Counted from the whole stretch's first letter, positions 4,401-52,822 are shown. The stretch: 61,848 bases of DNA, filler included, from 10 parts of 10 records of this genome joined end to end with filler, not necessarily neighbours in it; one strand, 5' to 3'. Notes: generated by a model not told the origin, from the sequence alone. Made by a program: numbers and translations.

Positions 4401-7400
4401 GCTGAGAGCCTTGTTGAGGCAATTTTGGTGAGGTGTTTAGAATGGCTGGCAGTGAGCCTGTCGGGTAGGAGGACAACAGTCCACTTGTCAAAGCTATTGA
4501 TGATGTCTGCAGAGACACTCGGGCAACTCCAGTGTACAGGCACAAAGAAACAATTCGGTTCTTCCAGACTAGCTGGCGATACTTGGTCGAGCATGATGCT
4601 GAGGAGAAGGATCAAGAGCAGAGTGCAGCTGATCACGATCATGTCACCGCTTGTAAGATCTTGATTTCAGTGTACCACAACCCCGAGAAATTAGGCATAC
4701 GGAGCCACACCTTAGATAAGACGCATAGATTGATGATACACTGCAATCAATGGGGGTGCAATACACCGGTGGCCGACACTCTGAATTCGCTTGGCCGCAA
4801 GTGGCACGAAGAGTATAACGAGCTCCGCGAATTGGCTGTTTCAGGCGGCAAGTGTCTTTATTGCCTTGCACTACAAATGGCGCGAGGAGTACTCAAAGCT
4901 GGTTTCTCTGCTGTCCATATACTAATGGCGCGCACGTACGATGCTGCTGTGCAGCAGCTGGTGAAAGAGAGCGGCCAGGATCCGGAGGACTTTCTCAGGA
5001 TGATTGGAGACTCCAATCTGACTAATCTGGTCAAGGATTGGGACTCTGTCTTTGAGAAAGAGCTGCGTGGAATTTCAGAATCAGAGAAGGGACAACAAGA
5101 AAAAGCAGAGAGATTTGGCGATCTGATCACTAGCATCCTGGAGGGACCAAATAACCCTTTCCCGTTCTATCGGAAATCGACTGATAGAACAATAGTGTAT
5201 CTTGAGCTAGATAGCCGCGCCCAACCGGGAGATCGGATGCAGAGCCGGACGGGCCGAGTGGGCACCATTGTCGACATACATGATGATGGCAGCTGTGATG
5301 TTGAGTATATCGACGGCGAAACTGATTCGCATGTGCCGCCATCGAATGTTTTAGTTGAAAAGTATGAGCGACAGTGGGAATGGGACAGTCAAGCCCGTCA
5401 AGCTGGTCTTGATCAGCGCTTTGAGTGGGTTGCTAAATGGAAGGAAGCAATGAGGAGGGAAAGCCACAATAAAACTGCAATCCGTGACAGAATGGAGGAC
5501 TTTCAGCGGCTGCTGCGCAGCAACTACAGTAATGAGTCACTCTCCGATGTCTTCGACAAATTAGACTTGCCATTCGCAGGCAGGCAAAGCCGTGACGCAA
5601 TTAATACATTTTACAACAGCCTTGAAGAGCTGACCCGGATCTCTAACGAAATCATAGCGGAGGAGTTCGACGAGAAGAAAAAACTTGACGAGAGAGCTCA
5701 TGATCTGCGCCACAAGGAGATCTTTGAGCGTATCGAAGATTACAGCAGCATGCTGCGATACTTCCTGGGGTGGGTCGAAGGCGAAGATGGGTTTTCTACC
5801 ACCAAGTTTGCCGTGCCTGCAGTCAAGGGGCAGTCTGCGAAACGATACCGGGATTTTCGAGATGGATGCATGCAACATGTCAGCAAGTATCTGGCAGAAG
5901 ATGCAGAGGGCGGAACCGTTGATGCTGAGCATAAGTTTACATGTACTTTAAATCTACTACAGATGAGAATCTTGGGGCTCCTGGATGTAGAGTTCCGGGA
6001 CTTTATTGATGAAGATGTCGTCTTCGAAGACATTGCGGAGACTATCGGATATATACTCAAGGTGCAACCTTCCGTGCCGCATCGCCTAAGCCATGTGTCA
6101 GGGATATCCAGGACCTGATGACCCAAGCATCGCCGATGCAGCTAAGCAGCTGAGGACATTAAACACCTATATTCCACCGGACCAACAGGTAGTATTCTAT
6201 TCCGTGTTGAGTGATAACCTTCGTGGATAGGTTGAACTTCTCGACTCAGGGAACACAAGTGCCAATGGCACCGTAGCAAACAAGCGGGTGTTCGAGCAGA
6301 GGAAGAAACGGGCGCTGGAGTGTCAAGCGCTCGATAAATGGATATCAGAAGTGGACCACAAATGCTCAGATGGTCGCTTGGTCCTCGAATTTTATCAAGA
6401 GGCTTTAGAATTGCATAGAAACAGCACTGGGTTGGCTGATGTCTACAAAGTACTGCAGAATCTGCTTTTGCTCGCATGGCAATACATGTCCATTCGTTTT
6501 GCGAACAAGTCTCTGATTGGTTCTTATGCTCAGAATTGGGTCAAAGAGCATGCCCTGACCCATAGTATCATGAACACACAGTGCGCTTCGAAGCCAAGTC
6601 TCGATGAATTCCGCGAACAGCTTCGAGACAACTTTTCCAGTGGAGATGGCGACAATAATCCGCAGAGCCTCAGCGAGAAGAACCTCGCTGAACAGTTTGA
6701 GCAAACATATGTCGGGCGATATGGCGAATCACTGCGCAAATTTCGAAGCCTCCGACTCGACAATCTGCTTGTATATGCCCTGGTGAGATCGTAGACAATC
6801 ATGCCGCTGACTGTGCTCTGGCAGATGTACATATATGCATATGATATCTATGCGGAGCTCGTTCGAATCAACGAGCTCCAGAACATGATGTTGGTTCCAG
6901 AGCTGTATACTGAATCGAGACCTCAGCTCTGTGATTTGCGAAAGCAGTTGCATCCCAAGTGGCATCATCTCGAAAATGTCCTCTTGCGATTGTTCATCAA
7001 TACAACAAGACAGCTGGTTTCAATGGAATGGAGCACGTTTTGCCAGGCAAAGAAATTTTACAACAAATGGCTTAAAAAAAGGTTCCAGTTCTGTAAAAAC
7101 TACAAGGTCGAGTCGGGCTACAGCCCACAGGATTTGCTCGAGCGCATCTACAAGGATATAGCCGAGGCAATGGATATGGAGAGCTATTCCAAAGAGAACC
7201 AGCCCACGATCACAGAGCGAGGAGATAATTACAAGCGACAGATGATATGGCTTGAATACCTCATGTCTGAGGTGCACTCCCTTGTGACTCAAGACAGTGT
7301 GTGGCTAGAGTTTGCTCGTTACGGCCTTGATGACTACCATAGAATCACAGTTGAAGACGTGATTACGCCTGCTGTCGAGCACGAGCATAGTCTGCTCGCG

Positions 7401-9608
7401 TCTGAGATTCTATTTAATACCTTGCTCGACATTGAAGGCTGTTCTTGCCAGACATTACAGCGCCAGGCGATTGCTGTCGCAAGGAATTATTTTGAAGTTT
7501 GGTGGGACACTGGTAACCCTGATTCATGGCACCCCAATTTGAAAGATGCAGTCACGCTGGCCAGTCGGGGGTTTGGTGTGCAAGCTGAGGGCATCGGAGT
7601 GGCAGATCCGCTTGAAGCACTTGAAGATGAAGGCGAAGCCGAGAGATATCTAAATGGGCTCGACGAGGCTGAAGTTCGACGATACCTGGTCAAGATGCAG
7701 AAAACCTGGGTTCAGGTGGCTTTCTTCTTTTGGTTTGAAGACACAGGCGAGCTAGTGTTCCAGCGTGCATCATCATTCCGCGACGCGCCACGGCATAATC
7801 GCCGATTTGATCAAATGGTCCGATCCCTAAAGTGGCTCTGCAGAGGCTCTAGTCAGCCTTGGCACATCGCATGCAGCATGAGTGAGAAGACTAAGGATGG
7901 GCATACATTTGTCCAGTGCGCCCAAGATGTGTTTCCTGCTTCCGTGATTGGGTCCCACGATGGGGACGTGTCTGCGTTTGTCAAGCTGCTGATGCTAGAG
8001 AAGCTGGCCTTTGAAGACAATAATTTGCTGGAGAACGATGCTGCAGCTGAAGATTCGCGATCACAGGAACAGCCCTTGATCACTCCATGGGGGCTTCACC
8101 CAATACCTGGTCGGGAGGGCTACAAGGATATCGAAGATGAAGACTTGGGACCAAAGATCCCAGTGGACGCATGGCTAGCAGACGCAATCAACCTGGCTCG
8201 CTCGGAATGCGGATTGCCTGAGGATGAGGAACTTGGTCTTGAGGCAAACGCAGCAACTATGCGGCATACAATGAGTAGGATGGGCAAGGTGTTTTGCAGC
8301 CAGATGATCAAATGGTTCATACAACAGCCAGACAGTACGTGGTATCTACCTATGAACTTTGCATGGCGACCAAAGAGGAAAGCGTTGCTGTATGGCGACC
8401 TAAAGCAGTGGGATCCGCATGAGGATGATCATGGCGATCGTGGTGTACTAGCAATCCCACACCCCGATATCTCATACCAAGAATACGATTGGTGGTCAAA
8501 GAAAACTGGCAGAGATGTCTATGTTCTCAATAGACACTCGTTTGAGTATGACAAGCTAAAGAATGTCACCGACGAGGCAGCCGCTTACGTCAAGGCCTGG
8601 GCTATGAAGCAGGAGCACGTGGGCCGGGACCATGGCGTGTGGATTCCAGCAGTCATTTTATACGAGGTCGAAAATCGGGGCCGCGTCACGCCTCATTTTC
8701 AGCGCTACATAAAAGAGCACGCTGCGTGGGCGTACCCAGCAGTTGCGTTTCTACAGGACTCGATATTTGCTTTGGAGTCTGACGAAGATTCTTTGAAAGA
8801 CCTGGGCCTGATCAAGGATCAGGTCCAAGGTCTGCTCGACATGGCTCGTGAGAAGGGAGCAAAGTGTCTTTCTTCGCTGTTTGATACAACAAATGTAGTC
8901 AATAAGATGTGCAACTTCCTCCACAAGTTCTTCGTTAAAGGCCAGAAAGTCTACCTCTTCAAGAGTAGCAAATTCCATGCAAGTATTGTCGAAATCCTAC
9001 CAGACGGACTAGCCAAGCTGGGAGAGCTGTCAGAGGCGCTCAAAGACAGGAGGGTAAAATACTCAAAAGATGCCGACGAGGATGCCGCATTTGAATTTGA
9101 GAAGCTGAGCAATCTGCAGCCGTTTTATACAGAGACGACTGGAAGCAACCTCGAGAAGGTCAAGCAGTACGATCTGCAGCACGAGGAGCTCGACAGGTAT
9201 CGACACCTCTTCACCCCTCTCAAAGACAATCTGGAACTTTTTAGGGATCAACTCATCAAGGAACTGCAAAAGGCGTTTGGTAACTACCAAAAGGACCAGC
9301 TTGCCTTGCCTGCGTTTGGCCAAAGCATTGCCTTCGGAAAATTGATTGTTGATGCCAAGGTGGGAAGCCACTCCGGCAACGCAATGGCTTCGGCTTTTAA
9401 ACCGACAATTGACTACTCGCACAACAAGCCCTGCCCGGCCTGCATTCGTGCATGGCATGGCAATTTAGGCCCAGTCCAGTGCCCAGGCCACCAACCATGG
9501 TTATGTCACAAGCTTGATGAAGGCATTGTGTGGGCAGAGAAGCGGTTCAAAATCGAGTCATCTTTTGCATTTGAGAGTGACGATGATGATGATTTCTTAA
9601 ACTACTGA
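1478..9608 (+). CDS. Very large multi-exon protein: two N-terminal PH domains, long helical body, SH3/Tudor-like insert
   Basis: PH1 QGPIQKKG..FSRRQFEL..LRDSWVRQIN and PH2 IWMEKR..WTPCYLVL. Consecutive ORFs are joined by short introns (e.g. 2131-2165, 2395-2430, 2516-2555). GDRMQSRTGRVGTIVDIHDDGSCDVEYIDGE is a Tudor/SH3-like segment. The terminal exon ends at TGA 9608. Some internal junctions are uncertain. Confidence 0.7.
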
Positions 9609-23398: not shown

Positions 23399-26300
23399 AT
23401 GGCGATTTTTGGTTTCAGGCCGCCCTTGAGGCTGGCCTACTTGCTGGGAGCGCTGGCGGTGCTGCTCCTGGCCGACTCCGAGGCCACGCTAGGTGCGCCC
23501 GGCCGCCGCTCGGGCCAGCTGAGCCTTGGGCGCAGAGGCCGAAGAGCAGCCGGACGCCAAGACGGGGCCGGTGCCGAGGGATCGGCTGGATCCGCCTTTG
23601 CTCCGGGCGGCCGAGATGTCGACTCGGATGGTGGCGGCTCACCTCAAGTCGGTGGAGCGCTCCGCGGCTGGATCGGTGCACCGTCGGGGCTGGGCCGCGG
23701 AGCGGGCCGACCGGGCGGCGGGGCTCCTCGAGAGGGGAATGGAGGGCAAGCAGGCGGCCGAGCGAGCGCTGGAGGCGGCCCAAGCCGAGGTGCCCGCCGG
23801 CCGGGGGCGGGGGCTCGAGCCGGGGCCGGTAGGTGGCGCGGACGCGGGCTGAGGAGATGGAGGCCCGCACAAGGGCGGAGAGGGCGTCGACACGGCTGGA
23901 GGAGGTGCGGGCGGGCCGCCTTGGTCGGCGCGGACACGGCGGGTGCAGGTGGTGAGGTCCGAGGCTTCCGAGAGCAAGCAAGCGCTGCTCAAGGCGAAGG
24001 CGGCGGTGCAGAGGGCGGAGGGGAAAGTCAGGACCAAATCGGTTGCCACAGCCAGCTCCAAGGCGGCGGCGGGCGAGGCGCAACAGGCTGTGCACCGGAT
24101 CGCCACGGCGCTGAAGCAGATCGCGCAAGCGCGGGAGCAGGCCGAGGCTGTGCACGAGCGCACGTTGAGGGCGAGCGAGGCAGGCGACTCTTTGTTCGAG
24201 CAACTGACAGAGACTGCCGCGCAGTCCGAGCTTGCCGGCCACGAGGCGACCAAGACACGCGACGCAGTCGACAGGCTCGGACTGGCTATCCGACGGGTGG
24301 GGGCGGTGGCGGTTGTCAAGGCCTCCGAAGCGAGTGCAAAGGAAGCGCTGGCAGCTGATCACCTGAATCGCACCCAGAGCAAGAAGGCAGCCATCGAGCA
24401 GCGGCTCGACCGGATCGGCTCGCGCGATCATCAGCGCGCCGAGAGCGATCGACGGGCGGCCGAGGCGGTCCATGCGGGCTCGGCGGAGGCATCGAAGCTC
24501 GTGGAGCGTCTTGAGGAGCAGCTGAGCTCCTTTAGAGAAGAGGCAGCTGCCAAGAACGGCACACTGGAGGAGATGCGGCAACAGGAGCAGGCCAGGCGGG
24601 CCGAGCTCGAGCAGACCCGAGCACTCGCCCGGAGCGCCGCTGGGCGGGTGCAGGCCGAGACGGTGCAGATGCGAGCCGTGGCTCAGACGGTCGCTGAGCA
24701 GATCGCAACCAGCAAGGCGGCCGAGGAAGAGAGCCGGGCCAGCCGGGCTAACCTGAAGACCGCCAAGCAAGCGGCGGCCCGACTCGAGGCTGCGTACTCG
24801 CGCGCGGCTGATCAAGCGCGCTTTGTTGCCCAGACGACGGGTCGAGAGCTCCACGACGCAGAACAGGAGCAGCAGGAAGACAGCAAACGGGTGGAGGCGG
24901 CCGCGCAGCGGGTGGAGCAGAAGAAGAGCCATCTGGAATACCTCCGGGAAGGGTCAGTCCCAGCAGCCAAGGCCAAACTCGACGCTGCCAAACACGACCT
25001 GGTGAGATTGGAGGCAGGCCAACGCGAGCTGGGCGATGAGCACGCGGCCCAGAGCAAGCTTAAGGAGCAGACGGCCGCCGGGCTGGCTGAGCTGCAGGCG
25101 ATGCAGAAGGCTGGCCAGCGCAGCAGCGAGAAAATGCGTGCTGCGCTGGCCCGTGCAACCTCATGGGTGCACCAGAGCCAGAGCGCAGCGCAGGCCGTGC
25201 TTGCCAGCACCACCAAAGCGGCTCAGCGGCTGTCGGCGGCTAGCGAGGCCAGCAGCGCCGAGGAGCAGCAGCTCGGTGCTGCCAGGCAGCGTGCGGCCAA
25301 GCTGCAAGAAATGGCCCGGGTGGGTACTGGAAATCTGGAGAGGTTGGAGCTGCACAAAGAGGAGAGGGACGATCAGTATCAGCTGGCCGAGCGGCAGCTG
25401 CGGGCCGTGAGCCAGGAGCAGCTGGAGGCTGCTCAGAAGCAGGAAAAGGACCGAGCGACGGTCAATGCACTCGCTGACCAGGAAGCGCAGGCAGCGCGAG
25501 AGGCTGCGGGACTCAAGGGCGAGATGAAGGACCTCAACCAGCAGGCCGAAGGCCAGCAAGCTGCGCAGGACCGGCTCCGAACACAGCTGCAGGCTGAAGA
25601 CAAGGAGCTGTCCACAACCTCTCTACAAGTGGAACAGGCTCAGGCAGCCGAGGCCCGGCACATAAAAGATGCCAAAAAGCAAGCTGACCAGCTGGTGGCG
25701 GCGAATAGAGCGGTGGACCGGACTGAGGATGAGCACAGCCAGGCCAGAAGGGAGTGGCATCACCAGAATGTACGACGCCAAAGGCTACTCGACCAAGAAC
25801 GGACAGAGGCTGAAAGAGTGGAGCATGCGGCCGAGAAGTACAGCTCAGCTAGCCAGGCTGCCGAGGCCGCTGGCTCTGAGCAGAAGGAGGCTGATCAGAA
25901 GCTTGCTAAGAAGGCAAAAGCCAGGGCCGAGATCGAGGCAAACTACAAGCAGGCAGCAGATAAGGCAGTCGAGGCCCAGGCAGCAGCAAGGAGCGCTAAG
26001 CTCGGGCTGGAACAGGCCGAGGAGGACAAGGCGGCGGCGGATCTGAATCAGCAGCTGGAGCAAGTCAAGCTTGGGTCCGTGCAGAAGCATCTGAGCTACG
26101 CAGTCAAGACCGAACAAGCTGAGCAACACATGCAATCTACTGTTCAGCAAGCTGTGGCTAGCCTGGCAGGCAAAGCTAGGGTAGCAAGTGCAGCGGCTGA
26201 GCAGCAAGCCGATAAGCTGGCCAGCGCCCAGGCTGAGAACCGTGCGCTGCGTGTGCAAGTGATCGATGCAAGAGTCGGTGAGCTTGATAAGAAGCTGTCA

Positions 26301-29300
26301 GACGCCAAAAGCAAACGCATGGAAGAAACCCAGGCCGCTAAGGGCCAAGCAAAGGCGAGGGAATTCAAAGAGAGAAATGCCCACAGTAAGATGGCAACCG
26401 ATGAATCACGGGATTTCACAGTTGCTGAGGCCAAGGCTGCCGATCTGAAACAGCGCGTTGCAAGAGCGAAGAAGCGAGCAGCTGAAGCTAGTATGACTGC
26501 CCAGGCAAACGCGCAGTCCTCCGACTCGAGCTCGACTTCCATGCTAAACCAGGCCAGGGATCGAGTGAAGAAAATCCACAGAGACTCCGCTGCAAAAGTG
26601 AAGCAAATGTCAGAGGAGTTTGAGCAGGACACAACCCGGAAGCACGATGCTCAATTGGCTGGAGCTAAAAGTTTTGCGAAAAAGTTTGTTGCCAATGCAG
26701 TTGAAGACGCCAAAGAGATAAGCAAGCTAGCAGATGACCGCGAAACTGTCGAAAAGGCGGTGGTTGCAGGCAAAAAGGCTACAAAATTGCAGAAAGCTGG
26801 GCTTGAGCGGCAATTCCTGAGGCAACAGAAGGCAAAGGCGACCTTGGAAGCCCTTCTTCGTAAGCAGAAGGCTGAAGAAGAGGGGCAAAAGAAAGAGCGC
26901 AAGGCTCAAGACGAGGCATCTGATATAATTTCTGAGGCTCAGAAGGATGCAGAGTCCGTGCAAGCAAATGCCCAGGAACAAGCTGCGAGAATCCGTGAGT
27001 ATGGTGCACACAAGTATGAGTCGTTGAAGCGAACTGAAAAGCCTCTCAAGGGGAGGCCAAGCCAACTCGACGATGTTGTGGCCAGTGCACGAGATAGCGC
27101 AGCTAAGATGCTAGCAAAGGAGAAGAAAGATGCCGATGTGCTCGTTGATAATGCCAGAAGCCAAGCTCAACAAGCCACCAGCAAGGCTGCAGAAGCCTCA
27201 AGGGAGATGATTGCACATGCCGAGAGTCGAGTTGCCAAGAAGACAGAGGCTGCCAAGAAAATTGCAGCACAGAAAGTGCAGGAGGCTAAGGCTGCAAGTG
27301 ACTGTGACGACAATACTGACGGCATGCCTATGCTCGGTGAGTCGCAGCCCAAAGCATCGGATCTTGAGCAAGACCTGGAGAAATCTGATGAAACTCTGGA
27401 TCGACTTCAGCACCAAAGCCGCGACCGTCAAGTCACAGCTGCAGTGTCACGCTCCAAGGCACGTGAAGTTCAAGATGCTCACAAAGCTGCCAAAGCCAAT
27501 CTCGACGCAACCCAACAGGAGGTAAGCAAGCTTCAGAGCCAGCTGCAAGTCCAGCAGCACACACTTGAGACGGCAACCAAGGCACGATACATGGCAGATG
27601 ACGATGTTGCCAAGAAGGATGCAGAGCAGCTTCTTTCAGAGAAGCAGCTTGCTAAGGCACAAAACAAAATGTCAGCAGCAAAGTCCCAGTTGGCTGATTC
27701 CAATGATGCACATTCAGAGCTGGAGTCAAGAGCAGTTGCAGCAGCACTGAAGCGTACTGACTTGAAGGCTGCGGAAGACCAGGCACAAGAGGCTTTGCAA
27801 ACAGCGAAGCAGCAAGCTGGAAAACTGAAGGCCTCAGTACACAAGGCGTCAGACGCCACTGATAAAGCCGAGGAGGCTTTCACAGGCAAGGAAAGTTCAT
27901 GGCACCAGGCCAAGAGTGTAATGCAGGCAGCTCAGGAAGTGCAAGCTCGAACTGTTACCCAGCAGCAACAGAATACTGCCCAGCTGACTAACAGCATCAA
28001 GGCACAGCAGCGTGTGCAAGCGCAGGTGTCTCGACTCAAAGCGGAGCTTGCAGCAACTGGTGGGAAGACTAGTCAGGTATCAAAGCAGCAGGCTGAGATC
28101 ACAGGTCTGATGACTACCGCAGAAGATGAGATCAGCCGTGTAGAAGACGAGCATACGGAGGCACAAAAAGCTCTGAAGCAGCAGACAATCATTGCCAAAG
28201 CGGTAAATGCACGAGCTCAAGCGGCCAAGGCTAAGAGAGAGGCAAGCAGAAAGAAGCTGTCTGAAATCCAAGCAGCGGTGAGCAAGGAGCAAGATAGGTT
28301 GCAAGAATTGGCAAAGGAGCGCAAAGTCTCTGAGCAGCAGCTAGAGGAACAAGTCAAGAGGGAAAATGCAGGGAGGCTGGAACTACAGCAGGCAAAAGGA
28401 GCGCATGATGTTGCACTGGAACAGAAAGGCGAGCAATCAGCTGCTGTTGCGAAGGCCAGATCTGCTGTGTCACGACTTGAGCGTGCGAGTGATAAAGTCA
28501 AAGCACAAATGGTGGATGTAGCGCAGCGTTTGAGCAACAAGCGGAGCGCTATGCAAGCCGCTGAGCAAAATCTGGATGAATTGGGTGTACAGATGGCACA
28601 GGCAGCGAAGGTAGTCGAGGCTGCAAAGATCAGCTTGAAGCGTCAGGCGAGTGACCTGCGCAATGCGAAGCAAAAGCTAGTCATGGCACGCTGGGATCTG
28701 GCAAGCAGCCAGGAGGATTACAAGGGTGCGCAGGAGGAGGCCGCACAGTCTCTGTCCGACATGAACAATGCCCAGAAGGCAAAGGACCAGGCCGATGCCG
28801 CGGTGGATTCGACAAAAGTTTACTTCGAAGTGCTCCGGTCTGGCATGGATGTGCATTCTCCAGAAGGTGTGATGGAGCGTGACAAGATGGACATCATTGT
28901 CGAATCTCAAGCCAAGAAAGCAGCACACTACGAAAATTTCCTCGAAAAGGCTAAGGTCGTAAACGGAACAGCCGCAGCCCATTGGCAGCAGGCTGTCCTG
29001 CAAGTCTCGGAAGCTAAAGCAGCCGCCAGGAAGGCAAAGCAAGCCCTCGACCCAGCTCGTGAAGCAGCATTTAAATCTCAGATAGAGACTAGTCGCGCGG
29101 AAATCCAAGCTGCTCACGCAACCCAAGCCGTGAATGCTGCGAAACTAGAGTTGGTGCAAGCAAGGAAGAAGAGCGCTGCCACTCAAAGTGGAGAATATGC
29201 TGAAGCAGCTCGTGCCAAGGTGGAGGAAGAGATGAAATCAGAGGAGGCATCCCTGAAGCAGGCACTGTCGAAGTTAGTGCAACAGGAAAAGAAAGCACAA

Positions 29301-30035
29301 GAGGCGCACCATGCAGCAGCAATGAAGTCAGCTACACTCGAGCAATTGCAGAAGAAAGTGCGCGAGATAGTTGTATCGGCAAAATCTGCAACTGATCAGG
29401 TCTACGAGAACTATCGGGAGGTCACCAGCCTCGGGGCGGAGGTCCAGAAGCACAAGCAGAATGCACAGCAGACAAGGCTGAAGACACAGGAAGCCGTTGA
29501 AATCGGAAACTCAGCTCTGAAAGCATTGGAAGGTGCCCGAAGACAGGCGAGGCAAGACTACGACAACTCAGTGTCACAGCTTGGCCTTGCTCAAAATCTA
29601 GTAGCAGACACCGAGGCAACTCGAGCTAAAGCTAGCCAGGAGCTTGAGAAAAGCTCTGCAGATCTGGCCGAGAAAAGCAGTCTGTCACAAGGCGGGGAGA
29701 AGGTGCAGGTTCAGGCGAAAGCAGAAAGCTCAGCGGCAGCAAAGAAGCTAAAACAGTCCGAAATAGAATCAAGGAAGGCTGTGCGCAAGTTGGAGGCAGC
29801 AGAGACGAAACTTAGTTTGAAGACCAACCAAGTGACAGAACTCGAGAACATTGTTAGCCGAAGCAAAATGGATCTGGAAGATGCTGAGGAGCATGTTGTG
29901 ACAAAGTCAAAATTGGCCGACCATGCTCGGAATCTTGAGCACAAGGTGAAGACATGGTACGATGCATTCGAAACTAGCAATCCCAAAAGCGGATCAAACC
30001 GGCGCAACGAAGTGCAAGTCCACACCTTAAACTAA
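23399..30035 (+). CDS. Giant (about 2,170 aa) signal-peptide-bearing A/Q/E/K-rich coiled-coil protein
   Basis: Signal peptide MAIFGFRPPLRLAYLLGALAVLLLADSEA. Three ~43-nt GT-AG introns in the first 550 nt join the short exons to the 2030-codon ORF 23943..30035. No TM segment seen. Confidence 0.8.
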
Positions 30036-31287: not shown

Positions 31288-33184
31288 CTGGCCGATCGGC
31301 GACGGAGGACCACGGAAGCTCACGGGGCTCGTCGGCCGCGTTCGGCTCGCCGCGCGGCAGCCGCGGCTGCGGAGGCAGTGAGCGTAGTGACACGAGCAGC
31401 GCTGGACGAGGCGGGACCGGTGGTGGTGATAACAGGCGCGGGGATCAGCACAGGTGAGCCGCCGCCAGGAAGGTCTGAGCCTGTGGGCAGCTAGCGGGCT
31501 CCCGGTTTACCGGCACGCCCCCGACGCGATCTGGGAGACCTCGCTGGTGGAGTGGGGTACCCGGGAAGCGTTCCTGCGAGACCCGGCCGCCTGGTGGCAG
31601 GGCTATCTAGACCGGGCGTACGAGTCTTTCCGGACCGGCCGGAGCGCAAACCGTGCGCACGACGGACTGGCCCGGCTGGCGGCGGCGGTGCCTGGCGTCA
31701 AGCTGGTGACCCAGAACGTGGACGGGCTGCACGATGGATGCCCGGCCGAGCAGCTGGTGGAGGTCCATGGCCGGCTGGATCTGCTCAAGTGTGTGGCGGA
31801 GGGCTGCCAGTACGCCCGGCACCGATCGATCCCGCTGCGGGGAGGCCGGGTGGACCAAAGCTACGTGCAGGACCCGCCGCGCTGCCCGGGCTGTGGCGCA
31901 CGCGTGATGACCCAGTTCCTTTGCTTCGACGAGCAGTATGAGAGCCATGAGCGGTACCAGTGGCCCAAAGTGCTCGACTGGTTAGACACTGCCTCCGTGT
32001 TCGTTTTCGTCGGAACCTCGTTCGCGGTTGGAATCACCGAGGAGGCGTTGCATCAGGCGGAGCGCCGGCTGGTTCCGTGCTTTCAATTTAATATCAACGT
32101 CCCTGCGAAGCTCCGGAACAGGCCAAGCCTGAGCATGCAGCACGTTATTGGAGAGAGCGACCAAACCGTGGCTGAGTTTGCCTCCCAAGTCCTTGCGGGC
32201 GTTGCTCAAGCCTCGGAGCCGGTCCACAAGCGCAGGCGCACCGGCGAGAGCCAAGCAGCAGAGGCCGCGACGGATCGACCGTTGCCAACGCGATTTGGCT
32301 CGCTGTCGCTGGTCGAATGGGCAGGGCCTCGGAATAGTGAGCTGAGAGAGCTGTTGATTGGACTTGTCCGCAAGTGCGCGCAGCACGATTGGACGTATCC
32401 GCTGGCTGTGATTGAAGACTGTGTGCCAGGCTCAGTGTATACAAACCAGGACTGTACGCTGGTTGTGACAACATCACAGTGTGGCTTCTACTGTGTGATC
32501 GGCGAGGTAGCCACCGCTCAAGGCTGCGCCGACGTAGCCGAGTTGCTTGGAGCAGACACCGGCTGGGAGTTCTTATACTCGTATCCGGCTGCCACCTGGG
32601 ACGCAGCACTGGCCGCAGCTCTCGCTTGCTTTCGGTTCGAACGGAGCTGCTTCAACCCGCCTGCGTGCGCCCCTTTGCTCGCGACGATGCGGCCGTTGCC
32701 GACTGGGATGACTGTGGAGCGGGTGACCACAGCGCTGCTAAAGAAGTACCAGGCAGTGTACCCATGGCACCGCTCCACCTGGCCAGACCCGGCCAGGTTT
32801 GGTGCGAAGGGCGGAGTGGGCTATCTCGTGCTCAACAAGAAGCAGAGGGTGGCTGCCGGGTGCATTGGGGTGTTCATAGGGGCTGGCACGCATGAGCTTG
32901 ACATCTTCACCGCTCCGCGCAGTCGAGGAAAGGGACTCGCTCAGATCGCAGCCTGCCATACAATGTGCGAACTAATGCATAGTTCCAGCCAGCAAGCGAA
33001 TATCAGCGAGGTCGAGCCCCACCATGCAAAGATGCCAATCGTGAGCTGGGCTTGTGACTCAGAGAATGCCGCTAGTAGACGAATCGCGGAGAAACTTGGG
33101 TTTACATATGTGTGTAATGTGGCGTGCTTTAGGCATTCCAGTATGAACGATCCCAAGTACGATTATGCACAAAAACAGGTCTAG
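31288..33184 (+). CDS. Sirtuin (SIR2) deacylase fused to a C-terminal GNAT acetyltransferase; start codon unresolved
   Basis: VITGAGIST|ASGLPVYR across intron 31454-31490, then TQNVDGLH, VEVHG, CVAEGC..CPGC and VGTS. The same ORF continues into LDIFTAPRSRGKGLA and WACDSENAASRRIAEKLGF. Confidence 0.85.
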
Positions 33185-46390: not shown

Positions 46391-47956
46391 TTAGTTCGCC
46401 GACGCAGCAGCACGAGCTGCTTGATACTCTTTGCGAGCGTGGTTGGCCTTGAGCATGCAGGCGTAGCTCCAAGTGAGGTCTTTGGCAGCCATTGGCACGC
46501 CCGAGTTCCTGTCAATCTGCTCCGTCAGGTGGAAGCCGCCAGGCTCCACATGGTGCCGCAGCCGCATCAGCACGCCGTCACCGGCCCCAGCCAGTGCCTG
46601 GGCGGCACTGGTAGCGTCGAAGGTGTCCGGGAGCCCGAGCACAGGGGCCCAAATGGCGTAAGCCTCTGGGTGCATCGCTTGGGTCGAAACCAGCTCGGAC
46701 GCACCGCGGTAGAGCAGCTGAGCCAGAGCGGCAGTGAGCAGGATCCAAGGGTTCCCCCCGGCGTAGTTGTCTCCCTCGTAGCGCCCGTAAAGGATCCCGG
46801 GCACGCCTGCTTTGGTGTCGGCCTGGTTGATGGCAAAGCTGTTGCAGAAGAGCTCGTTCAGTGTGGCCACAGTGCCGGCGACCTCCTTTGAAGTCGGCCC
46901 GAACAGCCCATCACCCAGGTAGCCATCGTTGAACGCAGTGATCACAGCGGCGTCCTTCTTCCGGCTCTGATCCTCGATCACGAAGCCGGACTCGTAATGC
47001 GCCCCGAGCGTGGCCTCAGCCGCCTTGGCTGCAGTGCCATACTTGCCGGCACGCGACGCGTCGGACTGCTTGGCAGCGAACGCGGCGCCTCTGGTGAGTG
47101 CGGCTCGGGCGGTGAACTTGTTCCAGAACAAATCGCTCGACCGAATTTCCTCCCAGAGGTCACACCCGTTGGATGACCAGTTCTCGGCCACCCAGTCCAA
47201 ATCAGTCTGGATCAGCCCCCAGAGCTCATCGTTGCCGGCAGCGCTCGCGTTCACAGTCGTCTTGGCGTCCGCCCATGCCATTAGCGTCAGGGCTCGCAGC
47301 GCCGGACCGTCGTTCTGGGGTCGGCACCAGCCTCCGGTGAAGACTGAGCCGTTCGGGATCATGTACTTGGGCTCAGCCAGCACCGATGGGAGCCCATTGG
47401 GGTCCTGGTCCTTCTGCACCTTGCTCACCCAACCGGCATACGAGTCCATCTTGTCTGCCACCTCAGCCGGGCTGTCCGCGGTCTGGAGGAGCGCATTCAT
47501 GCTGAGGGCGCCGTCACGCTCCCAGTGGAAGTAGTAGGAGCCGCCGGGGGTGTTGTGGTCCGGGGCGGCCACGACGGCGCCCGATCCTTGGATGTCGAGG
47601 TTGGCCAGGAAGAACTTGCGCATGGCGGCCACCTCGGACTCGGTGAACGGCGGCCCCTTGGAGGCGTAGCTCAGCGGGCAGGATGCGTTCGAGGGCGGGC
47701 TCGGCGGGGTGGGCGGCGAGGGTGGCGAGGGAGGGGTGGGTGGTCCTGGCGGGCCGCTCTTGTGGTAGCACCAAGGGATGTCCTGCGGGAGGTCGGCAGC
47801 GGCTGGTCTCCAGCAGCAGCCCGAGGCCTCGCATTGTTGCTGGTTGGTGCCCAGATGGCCGCAGTCCACGCGGCTGCTCACGTCGCACTGGTCGAATGGA
47901 TAGCCGTAGACAACCGGCCCGAGAGCGAGGACAAGCGCAGAGAGGCGGGGCAGCAT
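46391..47956 (-). CDS. Secreted glucoamylase (GH15) with N-terminal trefoil (P-type) domain and Pro-rich linker
   Basis: Signal peptide; trefoil CDVSSRVDCG..CEASGCCW..PWCY; GH15 motifs YYFHWERDGAL, WCRPQNDGPALRA, DLWEE, GRYEGDNYAGGNPW, EQIDR and LTWSYA. Intronless. Confidence 0.92.
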   Translation of the reverse strand: MLPRLSALVLALGPVVYGYPFDQCDVSSRVDCGHLGTNQQQCEASGCCWRPAAADLPQDIPWCYHKSGPPGPPTPPSPPSPPTPPSPPSNASCPLSYASKGPPFTESEVAAMRKFFLANLDIQGSGAVVAAPDHNTPGGSYYFHWERDGALSMNALLQTADSPAEVADKMDSYAGWVSKVQKDQDPNGLPSVLAEPKYMIPNGSVFTGGWCRPQNDGPALRALTLMAWADAKTTVNASAAGNDELWGLIQTDLDWVAENWSSNGCDLWEEIRSSDLFWNKFTARAALTRGAAFAAKQSDASRAGKYGTAAKAAEATLGAHYESGFVIEDQSRKKDAAVITAFNDGYLGDGLFGPTSKEVAGTVATLNELFCNSFAINQADTKAGVPGILYGRYEGDNYAGGNPWILLTAALAQLLYRGASELVSTQAMHPEAYAIWAPVLGLPDTFDATSAAQALAGAGDGVLMRLRHHVEPGGFHLTEQIDRNSGVPMAAKDLTWSYACMLKANHARKEYQAARAAASAN

Positions 47957-48023
47957 GGTGCACGGCTCGGCTCGGAGCCAACTTCTGACCGGCTTGGTGA
48001 CAGATCTGTGGTCTCACGGACAC

Positions 48024-48123: not shown

Positions 48124-48592
48124 CCCTTGAACTCTCGATAACGAGTCTTGCATGGGAGCTCGATCCAGTACTCAGAGCAGCCAAGTCGTTCCTGGGTGGA
48201 CTCGATTGGGGAGCAATACCATTATACCAAAGTCTCCAACACCATCAGCACTCTTCATGATCGACTCGGGAGCGTGGGATCACTTGGTGGGCCCGCATAC
48301 AAGGGACTTCGAGGGCCTCCACAGGGAAGGCCAAGATTAGAAGTGATCGTCGACACTCTACGTCGTACGAGTAGAATAAAGCGCACTTATAAGGCATTGG
48401 TTACATTGCATTTTAACGACTATCCCCCTTACATGCATGTAATGACTCATGTTACACGTAAGGGGCGCATGCATGAATACTACAAGGTGTGCTTGAGCTA
48501 GTATTGAGCACTTGCTGAGCCGGATCCTACGGACAAGCTGGACCTGGATCGATTGAATAAGTGCATGGTCTTGGTCCAAGGATGGAGCACGG

Positions 48593-51500
48593 TCAGCGAT
48601 TCGCTTTGCTCGGGTTTGACTTGTAGTACTTGCACGACGAGCCGTGCATGCACCTTATGCCTCGGCAATCCACACACGTAAACGTAGTCTTCACAGGATC
48701 GGGAGCTTCCTCAAAATGGTTTGTGAGGCATCGACTACAGTTGAGCCTGACAGTCACCTTGTCTGGTTGCCGTTTACTGTGGCTGCCTTGCATGTTGCAC
48801 TGCTCATTGGTGCAAACATAGAATTTGCGGCCAGGCGTCGACAGGCAAGACTGCTTACAATGATTGCACGATGCAGCAATCGGTCGCCCGGAGGTGGTAA
48901 TCTTCCTGACCACCCTGGTCTCTGAGCCAAGCGTTAGCCAGTCTTTCCCCTCGAGCAAACTGACATTGCAGCCATAACAGTTCCAGATGTTGGCAGCCGC
49001 TGCCTTCCTAGTGGCCTGCAATACCACCACACCAAAGTGTTTGTTGATGCAGTCATGGCAAAATACGCGCGGGCAACAGCAACACGTACAGAGCTTGGAT
49101 TCTGCCTTGGTGGCGCCACACCAGCTACACAGCAGACTATTCCGCAGGCCCTCCTGCGGCAACGGCTGCACCACACCAATGCAGTCTGAGCAAACTGGTA
49201 TTGCCAAAGCTCCATGTGAGACCACCGGGTGTCGTAAAACCTCTTGCACCGGCAAGGATGTCACCCCACACACAGTACATTGGCAATGGAGAGCCCGGCC
49301 TGCCACAACAGAATGCTCAGCGCTAGGGCTGCAGGCCTGGTGCACCAGAGTTGCTGCGAACACGGCCCGTGCCGGCTTTGTTTAGTGCGGCAAGCGCGGT
49401 GCAATCCATCAAAGAATTCAGCCTTTCCTTGCGAGAGAAGCCATTGCGATCCATAAATTGCTCGAGTGCCATTGTAGATTCCCAGAAGAGCAGCCGGCGG
49501 CACTCATACGGTGGCTTACACTTGCACATCTGAGAAGCATGCGCCAAGCACGATACCACTTGGCAGTGAGTACATGTCGAGACCACCCCGGAGAAAAAGC
49601 ATGGTTGCTGGCAATCATAGCATAGAGAATTGCGCAGCTCAAGATCAGACAGGTACTTAGAGTTGCAGGCACGAACCGCAGCAGATTTTCGCTGGGCAGG
49701 GTGGTGTGGAGGTGATTCTTCAACGTGGTAGATCTGGGACTCAGGGATCTCTCTATAACTGATCCTCTGCACAGACCTTCTACTCTTCCTGAGGAACTCA
49801 CCCTCTGGTTGATAGCCATCCTCCAGCAGGGCCGGCAGCTCTCGCTTAGCAGCCCGTGACTTCGAGCCTTGACCGGGCTGACGCTGCTTGGGAGCAGACT
49901 TCTTCGCATTCTTGAGTGCAGGGTAAAGAGCCTTCCGGCACTTGGCGCATGAGCCTTCACAGGTGAACTTAGAGCAGGGGGGACATTTTGGGCCCTGATG
50001 CTCAGGGAAGCACCCAGAACACCACCGTCTGGGGCAGCTGGCGTCCTCACAGGCACGGTATGTCCGTTTTGGGCACGACTTCTCCGACTGAGTGCAGTGG
50101 AAGCAGCTCTTGCTCTTGAGCACAGGAGAGACTGGCCGTACTTCATGCCTATCCTCCTGTTGCGACCCAAGAGCAGAGTCTCGCAGCTGGGTCTCCAGCA
50201 GCATTGGGCATACTTGCTCAGCCTCTAGGTCTTCCTTTTCGTTGCTCAGGTACTCCACATGCCACCTGGCTGGTTCTGATCCAGACTGAGCAAGCCACCG
50301 TGTGATGACTCCAGTGACTACAGTTGCATCAGACGACTTCTCCACAGCAGCACCGATCCAAGGATGGCCTTCTGTCATCCAATTGCTGGAGGGCTGTGGC
50401 TCTGTCTTGACCTGTGCACAAACTGTTGTCTCATCTACTAAGATGGCTGCTTTGGGTTCGTCATCAGCCCTTTTTGTAGCAACATTTTCTTCAGCCTTCT
50501 TCCAAGCAGCTTGCTCCTCAGCCTTTCTGGTTGCACACTCATCGGCCGCTTTCCTCCCAGACTCCTTTTCAGCCGCTTCCAGCTCTGCTTGCTGATTGTT
50601 GCCTGCGCTGTTTGCAAATTTCCATGCGTCTGCCAAATCCAACTGTTTAGAATCAATATTACTAGATCCAGCTGGACTGACATGGTCCTGCTTCACCCTG
50701 TCAGACATGTGCGTGGCCAGAGCAGAACCTTTGCCACCATTTGACACAGATTAGCCGGCTTGGCTGCATCGTCTTCTGTGGGTGCTGCTGAATCATTCAA
50801 TTCCCATGCAGTGTTACCCAAGGCCTGCAAGGCGTCGAGCGAGCAGTCCACCTGGACCACCTGCAATCCCCCTCCATCCTCCCGGAGCATACCAGAAAGT
50901 ACCTGAGCAACGTCCCTCATTTGCTGCCTCTCAAACAACTCCCGAGCCACGTGCTTTGCCAGCACGGCCTTCACTCCCCTCACCTCCTGCTACCACATCT
51001 CAGGGGTGAAAATCAGCTACATGCCTCCGAGTCCACGCCTTTCTCCTCAGTCCTGAGCACAAACGTCCATAGTAACTCGTCCATTCCCACGTAGGTAGCC
51101 CGCCGTCGCCGCCTATCACATCGATACCTGTCCACTGCCAGTCAGATTGAGCGCATGGTCGAATCATGACCTCTCTTGGGCAGCCGACCCGAAGCTAGCC
51201 CAATTCAAAGGCGCAAAATTGGTCGCCTCGCCAAAATTGAATCCGTGAGAGAATCTGAGCACCTAGACTCACCAGGAGACCAGTTGGGCTGTCACCCGCC
51301 ATGGTACGCTCTAGGAAATGTGATCACGTGCTGCCCGGCATGCTGGACCGCTCTGAAGATGGGCACCCCAGCCCGGCGGAGCAGCTGTGGATGGATCATG
51401 GTGCACTTGCGCAGCCGCAGATCTGGGTGTCTATACACGATGCTAGAAAACTGTTGTGAATTCTGCCCCAAGCCAGGTAAACTCAGTCTGTTGCCCTGTG

Positions 51501-52714
51501 GACAGGTGCACGCACATGGAAGATTCCATCGTACCGTTCTGCAGCCACATGGGGCACTGCAAACCAAGTCTTTGGAGCACCACCAAGCATGAAGTTAATT
51601 GAGTACAAGTCATTATCCTCTGTATGCCACGAGAAGAACGCGTATAACATACCAAAGTACCTACCCAGTGCAGCTCACACCGCGCCGGCAGGTGGCACGG
51701 TACATGAACGGGGTGGTGATGCCCGGCATCTCCGCAGTGTCTTCCTCAAAGAAACTGCCCTTCAGCTTTGCAATATTGCCTGCAAGTGCTCAGACGCTCC
51801 CAGTCAACATTGCACACCAGGTGTCCACGGTGATCGGTCGCCTGTTAGGCAGGAGCCATCCACGTCGTTACCATACCGGACATAACGGTCCCCATCTGCC
51901 AGTGCTGCAAAGAATTTATCCTCAAGGTCCAAATATCCTAGTGACTTCTGCTGCTGCTCGTCGCCCAGCTCTGCCTGGGCAAAAGCGTCAGCAAGCCACT
52001 CATATTCGGCTCGTGTTGTGCACTCGTGCGATACTTCAAATCCTGGATCCCCCTCCTTGCGCTGAGTGGGTGCTACCCTAAGCAGCTTTGTAGGGAACTC
52101 TGTTGGTCCCACACTCGCTGCAAACTCTGCACCTGCACAGAACAGTCGTCAGTCTTTTGGCAAGCGGTCTGTCGACGCTGCGGCACGGGTGGGGGCAGCA
52201 CAGGTGAGGCACCTGCAGGTGGGTTGATCAGTGCGACTCCGTAGCGTGAAGCCTCATCATAGATCTCTGCAATATAGCTCGCAGGGTCAGCGTACTGCTC
52301 GAGGCTCGGAAAGTACTCCAGCACCGGCGGAATATTCCGGTCTGACCAGTTCAGGTCGTCCTGGAACTTGTCCGGATCGTGCCCTTGCCCCTGTATCTGC
52401 TGCTGCCGGCCTCGGTGTGCCTCGAACCGCGGCAAGTGGCTTCGCAGATCCGGCCGCTGCTCGATGGTGATCCACGAGTCGTATTCCAGGCTAAACCCTT
52501 CCCAGCGTACCAGGTACTCGCTCCCTTGGCTGGTCTCCCGCGCTGTGACGATTTTGCAGATCGGGGTCTCAGTCTCGTTGGGGCGCACCACCCGAGGCTG
52601 CCTCCCCTCCTTGCCCGGTGAGCCTGGATGCGCCCGCTTGGTCTGTCTGTTGCCCCCCGGTGTAGACCTGCGCTTGGGCCGTTTTAGCTGCTGCCCTGAC
52701 TCTGAATGGCTCAT
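48593..52714 (-). CDS. KDM5-like JmjN/JmjC demethylase with chromo, Tudor-like, C5HC2, ADD and 4CXXC-like zinc-finger domains
   Basis: Chromo [16 protein letters not shown]; Jmj[21 protein letters not shown]; Jmj[52 protein letters not shown]5HC2 [25 protein letters not shown]-like [29 protein letters not shown]. Frames are joined by introns including 50688-50728 and 49300-49336. Confidence 0.85.
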
Positions 52715-52822
52715 GCTGCCGCTTGCACCATCCCCACACACCAGGACAGCTGTACACCGGTACCGTATAGCCGTATCTTAAAAGCGTACAATCATGTACG
52801 GGTACTCTTAGCCGGCCCCGGG

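Follow-up and report, generated by a model that had tools for sequence, protein, structure and literature searches.

A probable JmjN-JmjC-C5HC2 histone demethylase of a marine unicellular eukaryote carries an ADD domain and further chromatin-reader-like modules

Histone lysine demethylases are usually aimed at their sites by attached readers, in combinations so far described from animals, fungi and plants. KDM4A-C carry C-terminal PHD-type and Tudor-type readers on a demethylase, and the ADD domain is otherwise found on ATRX, on DNMT3 and, in the comparison made here, on SET-domain proteins. As described in the Funabiki preprint, JmjC proteins with a diverged zf-4CXXC_R1 finger occur in plants (IBM1, JMJ24), fungi (DMM-1), Amoebozoa and Naegleria. 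A chromatin-evolution survey has ADD_DNMT3 added in bilaterians and cnidarians, and its main text names neither KDM5 nor JmjC. Here we describe a gene on the minus strand, positions 48593–52714, of a 61,848-base stretch of DNA (the window) whose product joins an ADD domain to a JmjN-JmjC-C5HC2 core. The initial annotation of this DNA did not know the architecture from model organisms, and the literature searched likewise holds no description of a JmjN/JmjC-ADD fusion; the supplementary tables of two evolution papers may list it.

The gene is genuine, expressed and nuclear, and comes from a marine unicellular eukaryote; among labelled relatives, the nearest is a transcript filed as Telonema subtile. 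We think it probable that the product is an Fe(II)/2-oxoglutarate histone lysine demethylase of the JmjN-JmjC-C5HC2 type, expressed and equipped with many chromatin-binding modules. Two relatives bear on its structure. P0001, a complete open reading frame of 1135 amino acids from a Trinity transcript with the EukProt label Telonema subtile, aligns with the window protein over 1048 positions at 59% identity and follows it collinearly from the N-terminus to the first half of the ADD. P0002, 277 amino acids from a 907-bp Logan contig found by an exhaustive HMMER search with the last exon as query, is 87% identical and runs from the end of exon 10 into exon 11 without an intron, ending in the same C-terminus as the window protein. 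A word-index search with exon 10 for longer relatives returned P0001 alone, and scans of metagenome contigs with the exon-10 protein, and with an alignment of exon 10 and P0001, returned zero relatives. The last ~40 residues of P0001 are presumably translated sequencing adapter; its C-terminus would be an artefact, and the orthologue therefore probably continues into a full ADD and the second Cys-rich finger.

We built the gene model by joining minus-strand stop-to-stop frames in frame, and its outer coordinates coincide with those first annotated:
52714 (ATG)..48593 (end of stop), minus strand: whole coding sequence, 11 exons, 3648 nucleotides, 1215 amino acids
52714-52213, 52132-51818, 51779-51704, 51660-51516, 51462-51296, 51254-51171, minus strand: exons 1–6
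51127-51037, 50989-50903, 50860-50729, 50687-49346, 49299-48593, minus strand: exons 7–11
51255..51295, minus strand: intron 5, 41 bp, verified by RNA
51128..51170, minus strand: intron 6, 43 bp, verified by RNA
50990..51036, minus strand: intron 7, 47 bp, the least certain junction
49300..49345, minus strand: intron 10, 46 bp, connecting the C5HC2 exon with the exon for the ADD and finger 2
48444..48592, minus strand: 3′ untranslated region covered by RNA (RNA contig X4 record 8)

The ten introns are GT-AG, with sizes of 80, 38, 43, 53, 41, 43, 47, 42, 41 and 46 bp. All are very short, nine at 38–53 bp and one at 80 bp. Such tiny introns, with the lower G+C, made a Mamiellales 'outlier chromosome' a candidate origin, which we do not retain. 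Aligned with P0001, eight of the ten exon junctions show no gap or almost none. At intron 7 the model leaves a 4-residue gap relative to P0001, and a phase-1 donor/acceptor pair, likewise 47 bp apart, is equally possible by eye; junction 9 falls in a poorly conserved region of the P0001 alignment. The intron annotated at 50688–50728 agrees with the model. For the one placed at 49300–49336 the acceptor stands and the donor moves to 49345, a position fixed by the junction in P0001 and P0002, which both lack intron 10 and continue through it.

Expression is documented in polyA RNA: record 15 of metatranscriptome run X8, a contig matching the window at 99% identity or better, skips introns 5 and 6 exactly; the skipped stretches measure 41 and 43 bases and have CT..AC ends on the plus strand, and record 5 of DNA run X1 retains both introns. 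Three runs belonging to two studies supply RNA contigs that map to exons 2, 10 and 11 and also extend past the stop into the 3′ untranslated region, with X4 record 8 spanning 48444–48714, stop codon included. A chimeric contig, or two adjacent genes misread as one, would be in keeping with a window that is a patchwork of short contigs, with a gene whose own contig is only 4.7 kb long and lowest in G+C (0.551), and with public runs in which no single RNA contig spans the whole gene. P0001, however, is collinear from residue 1 to ~1030, P0002 covers the exon 10/11 junction through to the stop, DNA contigs of another run tile 49529–51580 collinearly, and the last exon itself offers no start codon upstream of the ADD. 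This explanation is already largely refuted, and we give it hardly any chance. P0001, P0002 and the RNA contigs agree with the initial annotation that one polypeptide contains the chromo, JmjN/JmjC, C5HC2 and ADD modules, and show that the gene is transcribed and spliced.

The catalytic core comprises the following features:
52131..52333, minus strand: JmjN, residues 128–168, Pfam 2.2e-5, spanning intron 1
51200..51723, minus strand: JmjC, residues ~292–420, in exons 3–6, detected by Pfam in two exon pieces
51626-51624 (H310), 51620-51618 (E312), 51303-51301 (H400), minus strand: iron triad in the spliced model
49485..49631, minus strand: C5HC2 zinc finger, residues 886–934, Pfam zf-C5HC2 9e-6

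Pfam scans of the window protein were run on unspliced pieces. JmjC (PF02373) scored 5.2e-11 and 8.7e-10 on its two exon pieces and 7.6e-27 in the orthologue P0001, which yields the same four Pfam families, Chromo, JmjN, JmjC and zf-C5HC2 (the last at 1.1e-6). The HxE...H iron-binding triad is complete, with H310, E312 and H400 in place, and Y299, N320 and K328 are likely 2-oxoglutarate contacts, roles that we assume from KDM4 and KDM5 structures. JmjN is joined directly to JmjC, as first annotated: the JmjN-to-JmjC core measures 359 amino acids, compared with 573–638 in three canonical KDM5 rows that hold ARID and PHD1, and neither ARID nor PHD, the PHD1 insert included, has a Pfam match in the window pieces or in P0001. 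The annotated C5HC2 finger is likewise present.

Among solved structures, the orthologue matches Arabidopsis JMJ13 best (1.1e-53), followed by JMJ14 (2.1e-41, JmjC part only), KDM5C/B (~1e-40) and KDM4B (1e-37). JMJ13 is an H3K27me3 demethylase, and its place at the head of the list bears on two alternatives to the broader demethylase reading. The initial annotation had proposed an H3K4 demethylase whose chromodomain reads H3K9/K27 methylation, whose ADD reads H3K4me0 and whose finger binds hemimethylated CpG, together forming a self-propagating silencer in which DNA methylation is coupled to the loss of H3K4 methylation; a best solved relative that acts on H3K27me3 rather than H3K4 speaks against it. 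The same match favours the opposite idea, by analogy with IBM1/JMJ25, DMM-1 and the fission yeast Epe1, that the readers would guide an H3K9/H3K27 demethylase to heterochromatin and limit its spread. Since the plant JMJ13/JMJ706 proteins, for which Pfam C5HC2 is also listed, carry the same trio of JmjN, JmjC and C5HC2, the trio is not exclusive to KDM5.

We inferred a quick maximum-likelihood tree from 50 cores and 337 columns, its outgroup being two fungal rows, the only KDM4 members. In it the window protein pairs with P0001 (support 100). That pair groups with two JmjC-chromo metagenome proteins and an ARID-JmjN-JmjC-C5HC2 protein (Shimodaira-Hasegawa-like approximate likelihood-ratio test, SH-aLRT, 93), and the resulting clade lies outside both the 17-row KDM5 clade (support 94 in this quick tree) and the 26-row plant JMJ13/JMJ706/ELF6/REF6 clade (SH-aLRT 99). 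It appears to be a small, long-branched protist clade beside, not inside, canonical KDM5 and the plant group, and relative to the latter a sister position, not one inside it, seems the only placement left. Relatives of the core vary in their readers: ARID is joined by chromo in P0077 and by Agenet and PHD in P0107, it stands at the N-terminus in P0042, and others have a C-terminal chromo. So far as domain content tells, readers are as a rule reshuffled in this section of the family. H3K4me2/3 has about an even chance of being the substrate, tilted slightly in its favour because the core has C5HC2 and one clade-mate has ARID; H3K9, H3K27 or H3K36 methylation would take most of the rest.

The domain that sets the protein apart from described demethylases lies in the last exon:
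48947..49297, minus strand: ADD (GATA-like C4 finger plus PHD-like C8 finger), residues 982–1098, from homologues and predicted fold

A phmmer search with the last exon against 1.84 billion representative proteins gave 40 matches at E ≤1e-3 which, P0002 excepted, cover ~2–159 of exon 11, mostly ~5–120. With the window protein they form 41 rows, 18 of which carry PF21255 and 16 PF17981, and a profile of these rows matches the ATRX ADD at 1.9e-44 and those of DNMT3B, DNMT3L and DNMT3A at 1e-18 to 1e-15. Eight cysteine columns are invariant over the 41 rows and four nearly invariant; the window protein has all 12 (C988, C991, C1017, C1020, C1038, C1041, C1053, C1056, C1061, C1064, C1088 and C1091). 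An AlphaFold2 model whose input alignment consisted of ADD proteins, and which is therefore biased towards the ADD fold, has a predicted local distance difference test score (pLDDT) of 74–97 over its residues 1–120 (the ADD), and the eight best Foldseek hits are ATRX ADD chains (E from 2.6e-4, template modelling score 0.63–0.68), followed by DNMT3A/B/L. Direct comparison gave no Pfam ADD match to the window sequence at E ≤10, and PDB sequences searched by phmmer with the last exon yielded chance-level rows only (E ≥0.2). The ADD domain of the initial annotation is nevertheless real, by transitive matches to the ATRX and DNMT3 domains together with the predicted fold, and this much counts in favour of the silencer.

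The relatives of this ADD are mostly short proteins or SET proteins, with Pre-SET in nine, SET in six and SNF2 in four of the 41 rows. Ten rows scanned singly included eight with Pre-SET, seven of them with an N-terminal ADD before Pre-SET, and SET was found in five. One of the relatives, P0035, is a single protein of 855 amino acids with a PTM/DIR17-type Tudor, Chromo, ADD, Pre-SET and SET. Because P0035 joins these modules, this type of ADD is tied to H3K9-methylation machinery, and the Pre-SET/SET proteins among the closest ADD relatives are a further point for a silencing role.

Two candidate readers lie on the N-terminal side of the C5HC2 finger:
52457..52561, minus strand: chromo-like domain, residues 52–86, Pfam Chromo 1.3e-5, Tudor-knot 1.7e-4
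50187..50384, minus strand: Tudor-like small beta-barrel (GHPWIG segment), residues 635–700, from AlphaFold2

The chromo-like domain keeps W71 and F74. AlphaFold2 folds the GHPWIG segment into four strands and a helix (pLDDT 76–88), and in a VIA comparison the RDM15 Tudor superposes on this barrel with Z 6.0 and a root-mean-square deviation of 2.2 over 53 residues, a Z value of ~6 being in the range typical for common folds. A phmmer search of 176 proteins with the Tudor-like part as query gave a weak match (E 0.012) in the PF21743 Tudor of P0035, and BLASTP comparison with P0035 reached E 0.12. 'Tudor-like barrel' is, on the model, a fair name, and a reader function is putative.

The remaining modules are two Cys-rich fingers:
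49917..50117, minus strand: finger 1, residues 724–790, 12 Cys, conserved in P0001
48614..48874, minus strand: finger 2, residues 1123–1209, 11 Cys and one His, conserved in P0002

Finger 1 is 82% identical to its counterpart in P0001 and finger 2 is 91% identical to that in P0002, and hhalign aligns the two fingers as paralogues (probability 76%, E 2.2e-5, 52 columns). By the register that we assume, the positions of the ICF residues read K/R/H in finger 2 and T/R/H in finger 1; because these residues appear replaced, hemimethylated CpG binding of the CDCA7 type would not transfer to either finger, a point against the silencer. According to the Funabiki preprint, the ICF residues R274, G294 and R304 define class I zf-4CXXC_R1, JmjC-linked class III fingers are likewise without them, and the eleven cysteines follow the order CX2CX10CX4CX7CX2CX19CX2CX3CXCX2C. 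Finger 1 has eleven Cys in this order, with spacers of 2, 14, 4, 4, 2, 8, 2, 4, 3 and 2, and one Cys extra; finger 2 has spacers of 2, 14, 4, 19, 2, 17, 2 and 4 followed by C-x-H-x3-C, which gives ten Cys of the scheme and a His. That both fingers keep the published order agrees with the silencer proposal. A relaxed Cys pattern matched none of 174 other Cys-rich chromatin proteins and no shuffles, although the pattern was fitted after the fact and is not independent.

Class III fingers have reduced Cys 4–5 and Cys 6–7 spacers (Funabiki preprint), and finger 1 is short at these same two places. This likeness supports an anti-silencing role, as does the report that IBM1, JMJ24 and DMM-1, with diverged zf-4CXXC_R1 fingers, oppose heterochromatin or DNA methylation (Funabiki preprint). 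IBM1 and DMM-1, however, belong to a different catalytic family, because the JmjC proteins concerned carry neither JmjN nor C5HC2, and the assignment of the fingers on which the analogy draws is itself unproven. PF10497 was also matched in three of the 41 ADD rows; in the two examined (P0009 and P0018, 16.7 and 19.1 bits against a cut-off of 22.7) the match was a cross-match to the PHD part of the ADD, so weak PF10497 matches on Cys-rich chromatin proteins need caution.

Several results weigh against reading the protein as a demethylase with this full set of readers. In the gene model, only two of the ten introns are seen in RNA of the same organism, and junctions 7 and 9 are supported neither by RNA nor by P0001. 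The Telonema label of P0001 may be a contaminant, since a Telonema DNMT1 is reported to branch within chlorophytes (PMC12344493) and the label may include foreign sequence. In the tree, which was made without animal KDM4 and plant JMJ14-type rows, both a placement of the clade as sister to KDM5 (p 0.64) and one as sister to the plant group (p 0.635) remain unrejected by approximately unbiased (AU) tests. The first value makes the core compatible with the H3K4 demethylase of the silencer and the second suits an anti-silencing enzyme, with the qualification that the clade is excluded from the plant clade itself (SH-aLRT 99). With JMJ13 as top PDB match and these two values, the label 'KDM5-like' is not established.

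The modules add their own points. The chromo-like domain scores 25.4 bits with Pfam Chromo (PF00385), barely over the cut-off of 25.1, and P0001 scores 23.1 bits. The 13 residues before its first strand are without an aromatic, and in HP1, from which we take the cage positions, the first cage tyrosine presumably sits there; the annotated chromodomain thus has its Pfam match and appears to hold two of the three cage aromatics, lacking the first. In the linker between the two ADD fingers, an aromatic is followed by G-x-F and by an acidic residue ahead of the PHD in most of the 39 other rows; the window protein and P0002 have aliphatic or neutral residues without this shared motif. In ATRX we take linker residues Y203/Y204 and E218/Q219 to form the pocket for H3K9me3 and unmethylated H3K4, which fits the ATRX chain in the profile match. 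From these differences in the ADD linker and the chromo cage it follows that the ligands first proposed are not simply transferable, and both differences speak against the silencer.

For the barrel, a Pfam scan of the Tudor-like part at E ≤10 gave zero matches, Foldseek gave E 0.1 or worse throughout, and VIA reached at most Z 6.3 with KOW, Tudor, chromo-barrel and SH3 chains tied: the annotated GHPWIG domain stands as a small beta-barrel and not as a specific Tudor match. Neither finger, nor its open reading frame, matched PF10497 at E ≤10, which also counts against the silencer. Two-sequence profiles searched against PDB sequences returned zero rows for finger 2 and one chance row for finger 1, CDCA7 not among them, and the ESM Atlas offered both fingers generic zinc-ribbon/AN1 leads only (scores ≤0.84). 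Models of the fingers are of low confidence (pLDDT 29–65 for finger 2 and 29–66 for both), and the Foldseek and VIA searches with a model of the barrel plus finger 1 weighed the barrel alone, finger 1 being barely covered. Membership in zf-4CXXC_R1 is therefore unproven. What holds from the first description is that finger 1 is present and conserved and that the terminal finger resembles zf-4CXXC_R1 in its Cys order; the profile identity does not follow for either.

An N-terminal chromo-like domain is attached to the catalytic core, a coiled-coil, the Tudor-like barrel and a Cys-rich finger are inserted between the post-JmjC helical region and C5HC2, and a C-terminal ADD is followed by a second, paralogous Cys-rich finger. 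If the demethylase reading is right, these modules would attach to histone tails and probably to DNA; the enzyme could then be held, and perhaps switched on, at nucleosomes with a particular combination of marks, where it would remove lysine methylation. An enzyme that counters heterochromatin seems rather unlikely to us on the evidence above. The self-propagating silencer, which we judge improbable, gains from two further reports: reading of its own product stimulates KDM5A through PHD1 (PMC6327041), and a Telonema DNMT1 sequence exists (PMC12344493), which may hint at 5-methylcytosine machinery. Since KDM5A already reads its product through PHD1, the same ability in the window protein would be an analogy and no new principle. 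The proposed silencing loop, the KDM5-like name and the Tudor and 4CXXC assignments are not established.

A narrower version, in which two class III-type CDCA7-like fingers and the ADD tether a KDM5-related H3K4 demethylase to methylated DNA and to H3K9-methylated, H3K4-unmethylated nucleosomes and so spread silencing, we consider very unlikely. Were it true, one protein would sense DNA methylation and heterochromatin marks as well as the product of its own reaction, and the P0035-like set of modules on SUV39-type methyltransferases would be the matching writer. The architecture is lineage-specific on a familiar enzyme, one more domain shuffle. It represents a different solution in a little-studied marine protist lineage, with ADD fused to JmjN/JmjC alongside chromo-like, barrel and two Cys-rich modules. 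Measured substrate and ligands would show whether ADD-based reading of the H3 tail joined erasers, writers and remodellers independently, and whether JmjC-linked 4CXXC-like fingers bind DNA.

The window of 61848 bases consists of ten contigs of 3.2–15.9 kb with G+C of 0.55–0.68, joined by linkers of the form N44-TTAATTAATTAA-N44; because these are separate contigs, their order is uninformative about genome neighbourhood. The gene occupies a single one of them, 48124–52822 (4699 bp, G+C 0.551, the lowest among the ten). Other features of the window, observed in passing, are:
31433-33181, plus strand: 583-amino-acid frame with matches to a Sir2-family deacetylase (1.8e-16) and a GNAT acetyltransferase (1.8e-18), possibly a deacetylase and an acetyltransferase within one frame
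46394-48013, minus strand: 540-amino-acid frame with Trefoil (P-type, 3.2e-12), a proline/serine-rich linker and a family 15 glycosyl hydrolase (glucoamylase, 1.7e-48)
23853-30032, plus strand: uninterrupted frame of 2060 amino acids, no Pfam match, A-over-T skew 0.32–0.44, G+C ~0.51–0.53
4469-9605, plus strand: frames of 549 and 937 amino acids, no Pfam match above the cut-off, in a 6-kb island of G+C ~0.49 in a contig otherwise at 0.63–0.70

Compared with known systems, the protein shares with KDM5/JARID1 (animal KDM5A-D, Lid and the fungal PLU-1 type) the JmjN, the JmjC with HxE...H, the helical region and C5HC2, as well as the principle of attached readers, for which KDM5A PHD1 supplies the concept of a product reader. 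It differs in having no ARID-PHD1 cassette between JmjN and JmjC and no Pfam match, in itself or in P0001, to the PLU-1 domain or C-terminal PHD fingers. Its C5HC2 lies ~450 residues past JmjC, with the coiled-coil, barrel and finger in between, and the protein falls outside the KDM5 clade and adds chromo, ADD and two extra fingers. The plant JMJ13/JMJ706 (ELF6/REF6) proteins resemble it in joining JmjN directly to JmjC and in having the Pfam C5HC2 without an ARID/PHD insert, whereas the proteins listed are without chromo or ADD and their clade excludes it (SH-aLRT 99). KDM4A-C (JMJD2) likewise have JmjN directly before JmjC, with sequence similarity of ~1e-37, but carry a double PHD and a hybrid double Tudor, with neither C5HC2, ADD nor chromo.

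IBM1/JMJ25, JMJ24 and Neurospora DMM-1 combine JmjC with a finger of the eleven-Cys zf-4CXXC_R1 order, shortened at the Cys 4-5 and 6-7 spacers and without the ICF residues; they have no JmjN or C5HC2, and the fingers of the window protein remain unmatched by PF10497. The surveyed proteins carry one such finger each (Funabiki preprint), whereas the window protein would carry two. With ATRX, DNMT3A/B and DNMT3L it shares the C4 and C8 fingers of the ADD with all 12 Cys, and the model superposes on the ATRX ADD; the linker differs in lacking the aromatic/acidic motif, and there is no direct Pfam match. The partner in those proteins is an SNF2 ATPase or a DNA methyltransferase, and here it is a predicted demethylase. 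Protist ADD-PreSET-SET proteins such as P0035 are the nearest relatives of the ADD described here, and P0035 has the same three reader types; there they sit on a lysine methyltransferase, a writer, and in the window protein on a probable demethylase, an eraser.

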